From IMG/VR virus record IMGVR_UViG_2671180680_000009: 4,965 bases of DNA; one strand, 5' to 3'. The DNA comes from a virus (Duplodnaviria > Heunggongvirae > Uroviricota > Caudoviricetes). Below, one piece after another: positions 1 through 4,965 of the stretch. The notes beneath the pieces are model-generated. The model saw nothing but the letters and a program-made list of their open reading frames with translations. It did no database searches and was not told the DNA's origin. Numbering within the stretch: position 1 is the stretch's first letter; each line of letters begins with the position of its first letter. The translations under genes were made by a program, and so were the position numbers.

Positions 1-61
1 TGACAAAGTCATCGGGCATTATCTGAACATAAAACACTATCAATAAGTTGGAGTCATTACC
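1..61 (+). mobile_element. IS1 3' terminus including the right terminal inverted repeat (partial, continues beyond the window edge)
   Basis: Positions 1-61 match the IS1 right end as I recall it (...TGACAAAGTCATCGGGCATTATCTGAACATAAAACACTATCAATAAGTTGGAGTCATTACC). The reverse complement of 39-61 is GGTAATGACTCCAACTTATTGAT, the IS1 terminal repeat, which mirrors the GGTGATGCTGCCAACTTACTGAT end at 4674. Flanking DNA starts at 62. Confidence 0.85.
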
Positions 62-263
62 CCAATTTTTTACGTACGTAAACCACTAAATGATATTTGC
101 GAGAATGCTACCGAGTATTGAAAACACCACTACAAATACATAAGCAAATCCCAACAAATAACCAACAAATAATTTCCAGTGTTATTTTTAGCCGGTTTAA
201 ATTGAACCTTCAAATTATAGAGCACTTATAAATAACAACTTCACAAATCAAACGAGAAACCAA

Positions 264-290
264 AACTTACATCTTGAAATAATCACATTG
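264..290 (+). promoter_or_regulatory. Candidate OmpR-type box / porin promoter region upstream of the porin gene
   Basis: AACTTACATCTTGAAATAATCACATTG resembles the TTTACATTTTGAAACATCTA-type OmpR boxes of ompC/ompF and lies about 66-90 nt upstream of the porin ATG. Inference from motif resemblance only; no clear -10/-35 pair was found. Confidence 0.2.
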
Positions 291-355
291 ATTAGATGAA
301 TATTTATCGCGCAATGACATCATTTTTTAATAATAGTTCAAAAAAAGGGCTCACG

Positions 356-1438
356 ATGAAAAAATTAACAGTGGCAATTTCTGCTGTAGCTGCATCAGTA
401 CTGATGGCGATGTCTGCTCAGGCAGCTGAAATTTATAATAAAGACAGTAACAAGCTGGATCTGTACGGGAAAGTTAATGCTAAGCACTACTTCTCCTCTA
501 ATGATGCAGATGATGGTGATACTACTTATGCCCGTCTTGGCTTCAAAGGTGAAACCCAAATCAACGATCAACTGACTGGTTTCGGTCAGTGGGAATATGA
601 ATTCAAAGGCAACCGCGCTGAATCTCAAGGTTCCTCCAAAGATAAAACCCGTCTTGCCTTCGCTGGCCTGAAATTCGGTGACTACGGCTCCATCGATTAC
701 GGCCGTAACTACGGTGTAGCATACGACATCGGTGCGTGGACTGACGTCCTGCCAGAATTCGGTGGTGACACTTGGACTCAAACAGATGTGTTCATGACTG
801 GTCGCACCACTGGTGTTGCAACTTATCGTAACAACGACTTCTTTGGTCTGGTTGATGGTCTGAACTTTGCTGCTCAGTATCAGGGTAAAAATGACCGCAC
901 TGACGTAACTGAAGCTAATGGTGATGGTTTCGGTTTCTCCACTACTTATGAGTATGAAGGATTCGGTGTAGGTGCAACCTATGCTAAATCTGACCGCACT
1001 AATAATCAGGTTATCTACGGTAACAACAGCCTGAATGCATCTGGTCAAAATGCTGAAGTATGGGCAGCTGGTCTGAAATATGATGCGAACAACATCTATC
1101 TGGCTACCACCTATTCTGAAACCCAGAACATGACTGTTTTTGGTAATAACCATATTGCCAACAAAGCACAAAACTTCGAAGTAGTTGCACAATATCAGTT
1201 CGACTTCGGTCTGCGTCCGTCCGTTGCTTACCTGCAATCTAAAGGAAAAGACTTGGGTGCGTGGGGTGATCAGGACCTGGTTGAATATATTGATGTAGGT
1301 GCAACCTATTACTTCAACAAAAATATGTCCACTTTTGTTGATTACAAAATCAACCTGATTGATAAGAGCGATTTCACGAAAGCATCTGGCGTTGCTACCG
1401 ATGATATCGTTGCTGTAGGTATGGTTTACCAGTTCTAA
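356..1438 (+). CDS. nmpC: Outer-membrane general porin precursor, OmpC/OmpF/PhoE family, NmpC/Lc-like (prophage moron porin); 360 aa
   Basis: Start chosen at ATG 356 rather than the ORF-track start at 296. It gives a canonical signal peptide [23 protein letters not shown] with an AQA|AEIYNKD cleavage site, and AAGGG sits 6 nt upstream. The mature N-terminus [17 protein letters not shown], the PEFGGD loop-3 motif, the LAFAGLKF and YGRNYG motifs and the C-terminal ...VYQF (terminal Phe) are hallmarks of 16-strand general porins. Its position next to the Q antiterminator matches the nmpC locus of DLP12-like prophages. The ORF is uninterrupted. Confidence 0.9.
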
Positions 1439-1448
1439 TTTGATTACT

Positions 1449-1487
1449 AAAAGATATGTTGCGGGAGGCTTTGCCTCCCCAACATAT
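1449..1487 (-). terminator. Rho-independent terminator on the reverse strand (tR'-like, downstream of Q)
   Basis: ATATGTTG-c-GGGAGGC (1454-1469), loop TTT, GCCTCCC-CAACATAT (1473-1487) form a 15-bp interrupted stem. Read on the reverse strand the hairpin is followed by CTTTTAG (complement of 1447-1453). It lies about 140-180 nt downstream of the Q stop. Confidence 0.45.
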
Positions 1488-1574
1488 AAGTGGCTCCCTC
1501 AAGCCACTTCCTTTAGGAGCACAACCTTGCTTCTAACTATATAAACCTTCTGTTATATATTACCCTTTATTTTT

Positions 1575-1610
1575 GGGGGCGTTGCAACGCCCCATTTTTA
1601 ATAATTTTTA
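1575..1610 (+). terminator. Rho-independent terminator for the porin transcript
   Basis: GC-rich palindrome GGGGCGTTGCAACGCCCC (1576-1593) is followed immediately by ATTTTTAATAATTTTTA on the + strand. On the reverse strand it is followed by an A-run, so it is effective mainly for + strand transcripts. Confidence 0.6.
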
Positions 1611-1626
1611 GTAAACAATTGGCATA

Positions 1627-2010
1627 TTAATTAGAGTTATTAACAACGATATCCATCTCTAACCGGATATCTAATGCCATTAACATCCCTTCAATTATGC
1701 CCTCAGCCTTCTGTAACCTTTTCCCGATATAACCATCAGAGCAGCAATGCTTACCTGCCAGTGACATGAATGTCATACCGACTACATAATAATCTACTAA
1801 TAAATCGTGCAAATCGCTGTTGTTCTTTTTCAGACGGGCCATGCACCCGCAAATAATCATCGCGTCATCGTCACAACATTGCGGGCGAGATTTTACTTTT
1901 GAAGTAATTAATCCCTTAAAACCGGCGGCAATGGACGACCAGGTCACATCTTCATGATTATTAGCCGCCCACGCTCCCCAACGCTCAAGAACCATCTGAA
2001 TATCACGCAT
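1627..2010 (-). CDS. quuD: Late-gene antiterminator Q homolog (DLP12 QuuD-like), 127 aa
   Basis: The reverse-strand ORF begins [14 protein letters not shown] at ATG 2010, preceded by GGAG with a 7-nt spacer (GTGGAGTAAGTTGATG). The ORF-track start at 2025 is a TTG inside that RBS. Cys-rich segments ([20 protein letters not shown]) fit small Q-type antiterminators, and the gene sits at the distal end of the nin operon as Q does in lambdoid phages. Confidence 0.85.
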
Positions 2011-2095
2011 CAACTTACTCCACAAAAATCAGACCAGAACGCCAATTACAAGCAAAAATCAACAAAACAGTATTAGTTGATTGTTATCTCTGACT

Positions 2096-2236
2096 TCATA
2101 CTCCTGCTCCTGTCAGGGTTTTGGCGTAATTCTTCAGTATTCGGTAATCGGTCAAAACAGAACCGGGGAAACGATATAAGCGCAGATGCCCCCAGCGGTG
2201 GCGAAGAAATTCTGCCATATAAAACTCAAACATCAT
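2096..2236 (-). CDS. ylcG: Small nin-region protein YlcG-like, 46 aa
   Basis: Not in the ORF track (below size cut-off). Hand translation of the reverse strand from ATGATG at 2236 gives [46 protein letters not shown], ending at TGA 2096-2098. The start overlaps the rusA stop as ATGA. Call rests on synteny with rusA-ylcG-Q in DLP12 and on size. Confidence 0.6.
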
Positions 2237-2595
2237 TCATTCCCCATTTCGGTGATGGTCAGTTCCAGCCTCCCACCTTTGGTAACAGGCATCTTCACAA
2301 CGCGGTAATCAACGACCTGAGCATCATCCAGCCAGAAACCTGCTTTGGTGAGTGCGTCAAAAGCGGCTTTTTGCAGATTATCCAGGTCACGGCGACGGCG
2401 ATCCGGCATGTGGCACTCAATACGGATTTTCACTGGCATAGCCAGGCCGATATCCAGCATTGCGTTTTTAATGATTCGGGTGACGTTATCGCGGTATGCC
2501 TGCCCTTCTGCGCTGATGTGTGTGCGCCCGCGATTATGGCGGTAATAGCGGTTATTGCTCGGAGGCCAGGGTAATGTGATGCTGTAGGTATTCAC
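2233..2595 (-). CDS. rusA: RusA Holliday-junction resolvase (crossover junction endodeoxyribonuclease), 120 aa
   Basis: 120-aa product [18 protein letters not shown]... with aspartates at predicted positions 70, 72 and 91 (RRRDLDN...WLDDAQ), matching the acidic catalytic residues reported for RusA. The start codon is GTG (2593-2595), overlapping the ybcO stop as GTGA. Confidence 0.9.
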
Positions 2596-2882
2596 GCCTT
2601 AATAACCCCCTCTTTCAGCCAGATAACCTGCGTTCTCGCCATACCTTCCAGCGCGCATTCTTTTGCATACTCAGCATCGACAAAATATGTGCGGCGGTCG
2701 ATTTCGTCGTGACAGGCAGAACATGCAATGGTGGCAATCAGGTCTGGCGGTTTGATACCGGTACCGCACAATCCAGCCAGCCGGATATGTGCCAGTACTG
2801 ACGTTTCAGGATTGCCATTACATACGCCAGGGATTCTTACCTGGCATTCCCGACCACGCGCTGCTTTTCTCAAATCAGCCAT
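2592..2882 (-). CDS. ybcO: YbcO-like nin-region protein (DUF1364 family, cysteine/histidine cluster), 96 aa
   Basis: Start placed at ATG 2880-2882 ([10 protein letters not shown]...), which has a perfect AGGAGG 5 nt upstream (GCAAGGAGGAATCATG). The ORF-track start at 2921 would lack an RBS and overlap ninE extensively. Contains a C..C...H...C...C..C.H cluster. Position between ninE and rusA matches DLP12. Confidence 0.8.
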
Positions 2883-3045
2883 GATTCCTCCTTGCTGCCA
2901 GTCGCAACCATTTTTTATCAACCAGGCTAGCGGTATATCCGAGCAGTGTTGGTATTTCGGATGGCTTCAGCTCAGGCTTACGCTTACGACGATTTGATAC
3001 TCTGTAGATGTGCCCGTTCATGACACGAATAAGCGGTGTAGCCAT
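2875..3045 (-). CDS. ninE: NinE-like small protein, 56 aa
   Basis: Not in the ORF track. Hand translation of the reverse strand gives [62 protein letters not shown] lies 5 nt upstream, the start overlaps the ybcN stop as TAATG, and the 3' end overlaps the ybcO start by 8 nt. Confidence 0.8.
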   Translation of the reverse strand: MATPLIRVMNGHIYRVSNRRKRKPELKPSEIPTLLGYTASLVDKKWLRLAARRNHG

Positions 3046-3500
3046 TACGCCTCCTGCTTATCGCGCAGCTGCTGGTATTCACAGCTCTGCGGAATTGTCA
3101 GGTGGCAGCCGATATTCATCGCCCAGGCTTCGACTTTGCACAGGAAGATGTACATCTCGCCGGTTTCCAGCTCTGACGTATGGCGGAGGGATTGGACGGT
3201 GGTGACCTCGCCGGACACGACATCTACACGGTCTTTGCTTTCGTAGCCGAGATAGGTGTGCTTCATCGCGTCTTTGACCCACTCAGGCGTAGCGAAGGTC
3301 TTGCCGCGGGCGATGAGATATTCGCTGATCTCCGTGTACCACATGTGGCTGAGCGCGTTCTGCGACAGGCTGCGCTTCTCGCGCCACGGCTTAACCTGCA
3401 GGCGTAAGCATTGCCCGGCATCCAGCAATGGCTGAATCTGCTGGCCGATGGCCGCGAAGTTACCGCGATGGAGTTTGATGCCGTCTACTGGCAGAGTCAT
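3045..3500 (-). CDS. ybcN: NinB/Orf-family recombination protein homolog (YbcN-like), 151 aa
   Basis: Reverse ORF MTLPVDGIKLHRGNF... with GGGAGG 4 nt upstream of the ATG (GGGAGGCCGTATG). The internal SLSQNALSHMWYTEIS segment resembles the conserved core of lambda NinB. It is the first gene of the coupled nin operon. Confidence 0.85.
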   Translation of the reverse strand: MTLPVDGIKLHRGNFAAIGQQIQPLLDAGQCLRLQVKPWREKRSLSQNALSHMWYTEISEYLIARGKTFATPEWVKDAMKHTYLGYESKDRVDVVSGEVTTVQSLRHTSELETGEMYIFLCKVEAWAMNIGCHLTIPQSCEYQQLRDKQEA

Positions 3501-3526
3501 ACGGCCTCCCTAACGGAAACCGCAGA

Positions 3527-3556
3527 ATGCAGAAAATCGCAGGTGCATTTCTGCAT
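3527..3556 (-). promoter_or_regulatory. Inverted repeat upstream of ybcN (candidate tR2-like terminator/attenuator or operator)
   Basis: ATGCAGAAA (3527-3535) and TTTCTGCAT (3548-3556) form a 9-bp perfect inverted repeat with a 12-nt spacer, 27 nt upstream of the ybcN start. Read on the reverse strand it is followed by a T-containing tract (TCTGCGGTTTCCGTT) that is only moderately U-rich. Confidence 0.25.
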
Positions 3557-3764
3557 CTGTGACAAGGTGATGAGTTCAGATTGTGGTCGCATTTAAGTCC
3601 CCTTAAATGCGCAGAAGTCACCGGAGTTGTTCAGGCTCCGATGAGAGGATTATGGCGGATTGATTACGATAAATCAAAACTATCTTGAAGCCAAAACAGT
3701 GATCTTCGCTTTAAAAACCTTGTATACTTTCACCTAATCACAGCCAGAACTATGGATCTAACCA

Positions 3765-4142
3765 ATGACCAACAAAGAAAACAAAGATAAATATATTAAC
3801 AAGTTCAAGAAAGAGCTTTCAAAATATATACAACCAACTGCTGGAGTGGACATTCAATTATTTAACTCTAAGGATGGTGGTGGTGTAATTAAAGCCACTT
3901 TGAATAGAAGTGGAAAAAGAAAATCATCTATTGCTGGTAATTTTACTAAATTAGGTGAGGCAATTACCTCGAGTGGGCAGAGGGTTTTTGGTGGTGATCT
4001 ATCAAATGTGAATTTTTACGGAACAAATACGATTTTTGATGGAGATACAATATTTTTAATTAAATCACCTGATTCAGAGGAGTGGTCATCACAAAAAGCT
4101 TCCAAAGACGTAGAGGGCATCGTATTTGGAGGGAAAAAATGA
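3765..4142 (+). CDS. Hypothetical protein, 125 aa, soluble, Lys/Gly-rich, no recognised domain
   Basis: Uninterrupted ORF in a strongly AT-rich island. N-terminus is highly charged (MTNKENKDKYINKFKKELSKY), with no signal peptide or TM segment. Gly-rich stretches (SKDGGGVIK, RVFGGDLSNVNFYGTNTIFDGDTIF, GIVFGGKK). No obvious SD; a possible -10 TATACT at 3723-3728. I do not recognise the family. Confidence 0.5.
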   Translation: MTNKENKDKYINKFKKELSKYIQPTAGVDIQLFNSKDGGGVIKATLNRSGKRKSSIAGNFTKLGEAITSSGQRVFGGDLSNVNFYGTNTIFDGDTIFLIKSPDSEEWSSQKASKDVEGIVFGGKK

Positions 4143-4224
4143 TTAACATTACTACTAAGGATGCACTCAAGTCAGTGGTGAAGTAAGAGATCTAGTAATT
4201 CTTCTTGAAACTGATGGAAAAACG

Positions 4225-4566
4225 GTGTCTGATTATTTGCAGCCAATCCCTCCCAAAAAAGATACACACTGGAGCATGATTTTCATTCCGGTAGCAATTT
4301 ATATACTACTTAATCTTGTATACATTATTGCTCACCCATTATTTCCTGAAAAATATCTAAAAACATCAACATCTATATTTCTATTCATTTCCTTCATATT
4401 AAGTGCAATAGTAGCATATTTTGTTTTCCATAAGCATAAATCTGCCACTCTATCCATATGCAGCTTAGTGTTCTTAGTGTTAATTGTAGGTGCTAACGTA
4501 GGGTTTATCAGTTACAGCGACCTAACACAAAAAGCGACGCAAAAATTAGATAGTTTGTCTAAATAA
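4225..4566 (+). CDS. Hypothetical small integral membrane protein with three predicted TM helices (113 aa from GTG 4225, or 96 aa from ATG 4276)
   Basis: Hydrophobic stretches IFIPVAIYILLNLVYIIAHPLF, SIFLFISFILSAIVAYFVF and LSICSLVFLVLIVGANVGFISY are separated by short charged loops. Same strand and composition as the upstream ORF, 82 nt downstream of it. Start is uncertain: GTG 4225 has a weak GGA 6 nt upstream, and the first in-frame ATG is at 4276. A hairpin GCCATGC-7nt-GCATGGC (4574-4594) follows the stop. Confidence 0.5.
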   Translation: MSDYLQPIPPKKDTHWSMIFIPVAIYILLNLVYIIAHPLFPEKYLKTSTSIFLFISFILSAIVAYFVFHKHKSATLSICSLVFLVLIVGANVGFISYSDLTQKATQKLDSLSK

Positions 4567-4673
4567 TTATGTTGCCATGCGAAGTATGCATGGCTGCATG
4601 TCTGCCTTCCATTTAAAATGGGCTAAGACCTATAACCCTAAATATTATTCTTTATTATCTTCTTTACCACTTC

Positions 4674-4904
4674 GGTGATGCTGCCAACTTACTGATTTAG
4701 TGTATGATGGTGTTTTTGAGGTGCTCCAGTGGCTTCTGTTTCTATCAGCTGTCCCTCCTGTTCAGCTACTGACGGGGTGGTGCGTAACGGCAAAAGCACT
4801 GCCGGACATCAGCGCTATCTCTGCTCTCACTGCCGTAAAACATGGCAACTGCAGTTCGCTTACACCGCTTCTCAACCCGGTACGCACCAGAAAATCATTG
4901 ATAT
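4674..4904 (+). mobile_element. IS1 5' portion (left terminal inverted repeat plus start of insA), truncated at about IS1 coordinate 231
   Basis: GGTGATGCTGCCAACTTACTGATTTAGTGTATGATGG... matches the IS1 left end as I recall it. It is in the same orientation as the IS1 tail at 1-61. Similarity stops abruptly after ...CACCAGAAAATCATTGATAT (4904). Confidence 0.9.
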
Positions 4905-4932
4905 TGTCAGCGCCAGTGATATAAGACGGTAA
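4729..4932 (+). pseudogene. insA: insA remnant: first ~58 codons of IS1 InsA followed by 9 unrelated codons and a stop
   Basis: [58 protein letters not shown] matches InsA as I recall it (with one substitution, A for T in QLQF[T/A]YTAS), then diverges to IVSASDIRR-stop where InsA should continue MAMNGVGCRA. No insB-encoding sequence follows within the window. Confidence 0.8.
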
Positions 4933-4965
4933 TTCGCCATTTGGATTGTCCGCTCCACCCAACAT

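Follow-up and report, generated by a model that had tools for sequence, protein, structure and literature searches.

Insertion sequences (IS) nested within other IS occur in Shigella reference genomes (Hawkey et al. 2020, PMC7373316) and have been described for the ISAba elements of Acinetobacter (PMC9330008). IS21, one of the twelve IS identified by ISSaga in S. sonnei 53G (Hawkey et al. 2020, PMC7373316), belongs to a family whose termini each carry two IstA-binding repeats (L1/L2 and R1/R2) and end with CA (PMC10122671). Structure-based target selection by IstB has been described in vitro (PMC11208146). In this report, we analyzed a 4,965-nucleotide stretch of DNA (the window) near the end of which a copy of IS1 stops abruptly. 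We conclude, with very little room for doubt, that an IS21-family element has transposed into the insA gene of this resident IS1 copy, producing a clean nested insertion. The junction is a textbook nesting of two known elements, and public Shigella sonnei genomes already contain it.

Results

IS1 stops inside insA and is followed by the end of a mobile element

The IS1 copy, whose features are collected in Table 1, starts with GGTGATGCTGCC (in a longer reading, GGTGATGCTGCCAACTTACTG), and its last bases, ATCATTGATAT, end at window position 4904, which is IS1 nt 231. The sequence from 4905 onward reads TGTCAGCGCC (longer reading, TGTCAGCGCCAGTGATATAAGACGG) and shows no identity to IS1. A first-pass annotation of this DNA, made from the letters alone, had placed a clean IS1 break at 4904/4905, and direct reading of the sequence shows both its coordinates and its description to be exact. 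The 231 bp at 4674-4904 are 98.7-99.6% identical (three alignments, 231-234 bp) to further IS1 copies of L004, L006, and L013 (two in each), three relatives that carry the same junction. At position 4859, the window has a G where L001, L002, L004, and L009 have an A, and this is probably the one base at which L004 mismatches the window; the A-to-G change converts InsA Thr44 into Ala (QFTYT into QFAYT) in an insA' that is already dead.

Table 1. Features of the window and IS21 insertions within IS1. Positions are those of the window unless IS1 nucleotides are given.
Feature	Position	Strand or orientation	Target duplication	Basis or locus
Right end of a separate intact IS1, same orientation	1..61	+		100% match to IS1 right ends
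Left 231 bp of IS1 copy (IRL and 5' part of insA), cut by IS21	4674..4904	+		Alignment to E. coli IS1
Promoter-like site in IS1 IRL, CTGCCA-16-TATGAT (putative function)	4681..4708	+		Consensus match only, 9/12 positions
Chimeric truncated insA' ORF, 67 aa	4729..4932	+		ORF list; 58 InsA residues and 9 from IS21 end
Outward ORF, 67 aa (20 codons in IS21 left end, rest antisense to insA)	4762..4965	-		ORF list
Left copy of 4-bp IS21 target duplication (IS1 nt 228-231)	4901..4904	.	ATAT	Right flank in L004, L006, L013
First 61 bp of IS21 (left terminal inverted repeat, 5'-TG start)	4905..4965	+		61-mer matches and identical junction
IS21 in IS1	IS1 nt 217-220	+	GAAA	L002
IS21 in IS1	IS1 nt 228-231	+	ATAT	Window lineage
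IS21 in IS1	IS1 nt 229-232	+	TATG	L001
IS21 in IS1	IS1 nt about 340-343	-	TATG	L014
IS21 in IS1	IS1 nt 448-451	+	CCGG	L016
IS21 in IS1	IS1 nt 458-461	-	CAAC	L015

The 61 bp at 4905-4965, which the first-pass annotation had correctly judged not to be IS1, are found by megablast 3232 times among 5426 complete E. coli genomes, of which 2341 contain them, with up to 15 copies per genome and best matches of 100% identity (E = 5e-23), far beyond chance. Two thirds of these places are on plasmids and others are chromosomal, amid unrelated annotations. A multicopy sequence with such a distribution behaves as the end of a mobile element, in this case the left terminal inverted repeat of an IS21-family element. 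Indeed, an istA-istB pair labeled "IS21-like element IS21 family" in RefSeq lies about 100 bp downstream of the 61-mer in three unrelated records, and istA adjoins it in every context inspected. The same matches bear on whether the window might instead contain a divergent IS1 isoform running on through 4905-4965, as could be surmised from two E. coli sequences, H46 and H47, that matched IS1 plus the 61-mer as a single piece. Both in fact contain IS21 inserted in IS1 (at nt 220 and nt 232, respectively), with istA-istB followed by the IS1 remainder and with 4-bp duplications of their own, and the 61-mer also adjoins many sequences other than IS1. No IS1 isoform was found to continue through 4905-4965, and the likelihood of this reading is close to nil.

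The complete element and the resumption of IS1 are seen in relatives

The exact junction was absent from the complete E. coli genomes, and an exact 35-mer spanning it had no match in the GTDB species-representative genomes, a set in which the E. coli representative probably also covers Shigella. No record was returned when the chimeric InsA' was looked up as an exact protein. Relatives with the junction were reached through a look-up of a neighboring 125-aa phage protein, which led to four assemblies with an identical junction 85-mer: L004 (CP104423.1), L006 (CP049179.1), L009, and L013. L004, L006, and L013, which are 99.85-99.98% identical to window 238-4965, are near-identical chromosomes that are almost certainly Shigella sonnei, while L009 is 99.9% identical to window 238-4891. 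S. sonnei plasmids have accession numbers (CP104409 to CP104430) on either side of that of L004, the locus in L004 is crowded with IS1, IS3-family, and IS4 elements, and the window itself almost certainly derives from S. sonnei.

Since just 61 bp of the element fall within the window, the left terminal repeat alone is visible there; the completeness of the element, its right end, and the target duplication were seen in the near-identical relatives. In the three gap-free loci (L004, L006, and L013), the element is 2130-2131 bp long, starts with TGTCAGCGCC, and ends with CATCGTGGCGTTGACA (...GTTGACA), after which the sequence reads ATATGGCCATGAATGG. The right flank opens with ATATGGCCATG in all three, showing that IS1 goes on with ATAT repeated, i.e., with a 4-bp duplication. 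Uninterrupted IS1 reads ATCATTGATATGGCCATG; the resumption is thus exact, with ATAT (IS1 nt 228-231) duplicated. When IS1 is rebuilt in L004 from the left 231 bp and the 538 bp past IS21, it is one base off the intact copy 4.7 kb upstream, and it is in this relative, beyond the window, that the complete 768-bp IS1 with insB' and IRR is met.

These relatives decide between the origins that the first-pass annotation had offered for the junction, namely a deletion within IS1, a recombination, or the insertion of a different element. The last alone survives, because IS1 resumes without loss and ATAT is duplicated. A deletion or recombination joint at 4904/4905, in which IS1 past nt 231 was lost and unrelated DNA joined in its place, would fit the window alone, where IS1 simply stops, and the outer ends of the split IS1 are indeed rearranged, with the phage P gene on the left, the csc sucrose locus on the right, and no target duplication. 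However, L004, L006, and L013 have IS1 nt 228-769 intact past the 2130-bp element together with the duplicated ATAT, which excludes a deletion or recombination at nt 231, and the rearrangement touches the ends of IS1 rather than position 231. We therefore regard this origin as highly improbable. An assembly artefact, i.e., a chimeric contig in which an IS1 read was joined to an IS21 read, also deserves consideration because IS1 and IS21 repeats are classic sites of misassembly. L009, which has the same left junction, contains a run of N inside the IS21 element (an assembly gap) and, beside it, a 114-bp duplication in insA' (L009 11129-11480). Nevertheless, the recurrence of the junction 85-mer in four independent assemblies argues against an artefact, and three gap-free assemblies with the full element and a perfect 4-bp duplication are not what is expected of a random misjoin. 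The chance of such a misjoin is vanishingly small.

The inserted element has the hallmarks of IS21

The nested element encodes the two proteins expected of its family, both beyond the window edge. IstA (L004 11242-12414, 390 aa) matches NCBIfam transpos_IS21 with 284.7 bits (cut-off 160), and IstB, encoded downstream of istA (L004 12414-13211, 265 aa), matches IS21_help_AAA with 301.9 bits (cut-off 200); the two genes overlap by one base. Of the two terminal inverted-repeat pairs (I6 and I2), one joins TGTCAGCGCCA to TGGCGTTGACA, and the second lies at about element nt 14-38 and 2094-2118. Within the 61-bp end present in the window, repeats with a CGCCA core are found at nt 7-11 and 31-35, 24 bp apart. 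Among plasmids, the element in its entirety matches S. sonnei Ss046 pSS_046 best (99.9%); pB5, also examined for IS21, does not contain it. The insertion has duplicated 4 bp, which is the usual target duplication of IS21 itself. We use the name IS21 on the strength of RefSeq labels and the ISSaga call in PMC7373316.

Open reading frames and a promoter-like site at the junction

In the chimeric insA', 58 native InsA codons precede I-V-S-A-S-D-I-R-R, after which comes a stop. The nine foreign codons counted previously are right, the first being a hybrid codon and the other eight wholly foreign. The NCBIfam IS1/IS1595 zinc-binding domain is recognized at residues 8-40 (41.6 bits, cut-off 28), and the match to the IS1 transposase model is limited to positions 1-52 of 199. 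The minus-strand ORF with an ATG at 4963-4965 is likewise present in the ORF list, but the proposal that a gene continuing beyond the junction might start here was not supported, as the ORF has no NCBIfam family match and there is no promoter-like site on the minus strand. A stop is found four codons upstream of its ATG, and the gene call made for it in L013 (66 aa) has no Pfam hits. The left end of IS21 contains this outward ATG (window 4963-4965; L004 11199-11215), preceded by a Shine-Dalgarno (SD)-like AAGGA, in a frame that is open to the tip of the element, and gene callers consequently emit varied "hypothetical proteins" at many IS21 sites: the same outward frame yields a different one for each insertion site. 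The outward ORF is thus an accidental open frame and an annotation artefact.

The promoter-like site in IRL (L004 10917-10944) is the sole such match in L004 10850-11400 and points through insA' to istA of IS21, so that read-through into istA is conceivable from its position. This raises the question of whether the junction is functional, either through expression of the InsA' zinc-ribbon peptide or of the outward ORF, or through read-through from IRL that drives istA. IS1 and IS21 are co-oriented, with the only nearby promoter-like site aimed into IS21, an SD-like AAGGA precedes the outward ATG in the L004 sequence, and both fusion and junction promoters have been documented for the IS21 family (PMC9330008). 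On the other hand, IS21 is found in both orientations among its insertions in IS1, the peptides match no family besides the InsA zinc ribbon, and the promoter match extends to only 9 of 12 consensus positions. We consider a function for the junction very unlikely; as far as can be judged from their sequences, the chimeric insA' and the reverse ORF are by-products of the nested insertion with no function of their own.

The split IS1 marks a rearrangement

The split IS1 (L004 10909-13812; window boundary at 4673/4674) is flanked on the left by TACCACTTC, the 3' end of replication gene P of a DLP12-like prophage, and on the right by CGCTTGCAG, the csc sucrose locus, and these flanks share no 8-9-bp target duplication. 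The complement of the right flank, CTGCAAGCG, is found 3.6 kb away beside a third, inverted IS1 (L004 17382-18150), which indicates that IS1 x IS1 recombination (an inversion) took place after the insertion and truncated the prophage. The earlier intuition of a recombination therefore fits the outer ends of IS1 but not 4904/4905.

Several other features of this region were recorded. The intact IS1 whose right end opens the window is, in relatives, a simple insertion between the phage lysis genes and a porin gene, with the 8-bp duplication CCAATTTT on both sides (window 62-69). The porin gene, which lies between both IS1 copies (window 356-1438), is an intact prophage OmpC/NmpC-like gene encoding 360 aa, and it is accompanied by the late-region genes quuD, rusA, ybcO, ninE, and ybcN of a DLP12-like prophage. 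Upstream of it, at window 237/238, 96 bp are missing by comparison with L004 (6378-6473), L006, L009, and L013; many E. coli matches to the window likewise begin only at 238. At window 4139-4567, a 1-bp deletion near 4163-4164 (GGATGGCAC to GGATGCAC), shared with L004, shifts the frame of a 142-aa prophage ORF whose counterpart in E. coli relatives is uninterrupted (L005 10375-10803). Finally, L004 has a run of seven A (A7) at the IS1 frameshift site in two copies (5731 and 13342), which leads to spurious calls of a fused 232-aa InsAB. We rejected this insA-insB fusion as a lineage trait and attribute it to homopolymer assembly noise because the same copies have A6 in L006 and A6 or A5 in L013.

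Other IS21 insertions in IS1

A survey in which IS1 and IS21 composites were searched in both orientations and the matches inspected yielded six independent nested events, including that of the window lineage (Table 1). All six have 4-bp duplications, and the other five are from E. coli. In the plasmid collection, a search for further simple IS21-in-IS1 events turned up IS1 and IS21 side by side or in more complex arrangements, but no simple nesting. IS1 nt 217-232 (16 bp; window 4890-4905), the most AT-rich stretch of IS1 (0.62-0.71, versus a mean of 0.47), contains three of the six events, and nt 448-461 (14 bp) contains two more. In post hoc simulations with n = 6, three of six events within 12 bp gave p of about 0.015 under a uniform model, and taking in a further pair, within 10 bp, lowered p to about 0.001; with a test that is post hoc and only six events, the clustering is a lead rather than a finding. 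An orientation bias of IS21 within IS1 was also considered and not retained, as both orientations occur and there are too few events for a judgment.

Discussion

The findings above are best explained by a simple scenario. IS21, a 2130-bp element with an IstA transposase and an IstB AAA+ helper, entered insA at IS1 nt 228-231, landing co-oriented with IS1 and duplicating the 4-bp target ATAT. This left insA cut after codon 58 and joined to nine codons from the IS21 end, as is seen in the window, with both IS1 ends surviving, as is seen in the relatives. Past position 4965, the source contig would be expected to continue with the IS21 element and then with IS1 again, ATATGGCC being found about 2.13 kb downstream. 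From established IS1 biology, we infer that the helix-turn-helix of InsA is lost and that the split copy can yield no InsAB' frameshift transposase, which would render this IS1 copy dead in cis.

This junction is of little importance beyond annotation, where it has several implications. First, the ORFs at the junction are artefacts of nested insertion, and the appropriate annotation of the locus is a split IS1 pseudogene and an IS21 end, in place of labels such as a 67-aa "IS1 family transposase," an outward "hypothetical protein," or a "transposase zinc-binding domain protein." Second, the junction is a stable lineage marker common to several S. sonnei chromosomes. Third, it shows how IS-in-IS events come to escape short-read IS mapping (PMC7373316). 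A more general implication, which we put forward with considerable reserve, is that IS21 targets inside IS1 could be regional rather than random or, in a weaker variant, that the 2.9-kb IS1::IS21 unit, in which both IS1 ends are kept, could be mobilized in trans by other IS1 copies; both are doubtful at present. If true, regional targeting by IS21 could reflect, in nature, the structure-based selection by IstB (PMC11208146).

Comparison with known systems highlights important similarities and a few differences. The split copy resembles canonical IS1, which encodes insA and, via a -1 frameshift, insB', in its IRL, its first 231 bp (about 99% identity or better), and its insA zinc ribbon, and the remainder of the element is found downstream of IS21 in the relatives. 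The differences are that this copy is split by IS21, has no 8-9-bp target duplication of its own, and has flanks from different loci. The inserted element shares with IS21 as annotated in S. sonnei and E. coli its length, its istA (390 aa) and istB (265 aa), its 5'-TG...CA-3' tips, its two-repeat termini, and the shortness of its target duplication, and no difference was detected between them. Within the IS21 family, the CGCCA cores 24 bp apart fit the two-repeat terminal architecture (PMC10122671), while the 4-bp duplication differs from the 5 bp reported for IS5376 (PMC10122671). Like nested IS in Shigella (PMC7373316) and in Acinetobacter ISAba elements (PMC9330008), IS1::IS21 has a transposase ORF cut short by the incoming element and a duplicated target; it shows no evident promoter or resistance-gene effect.
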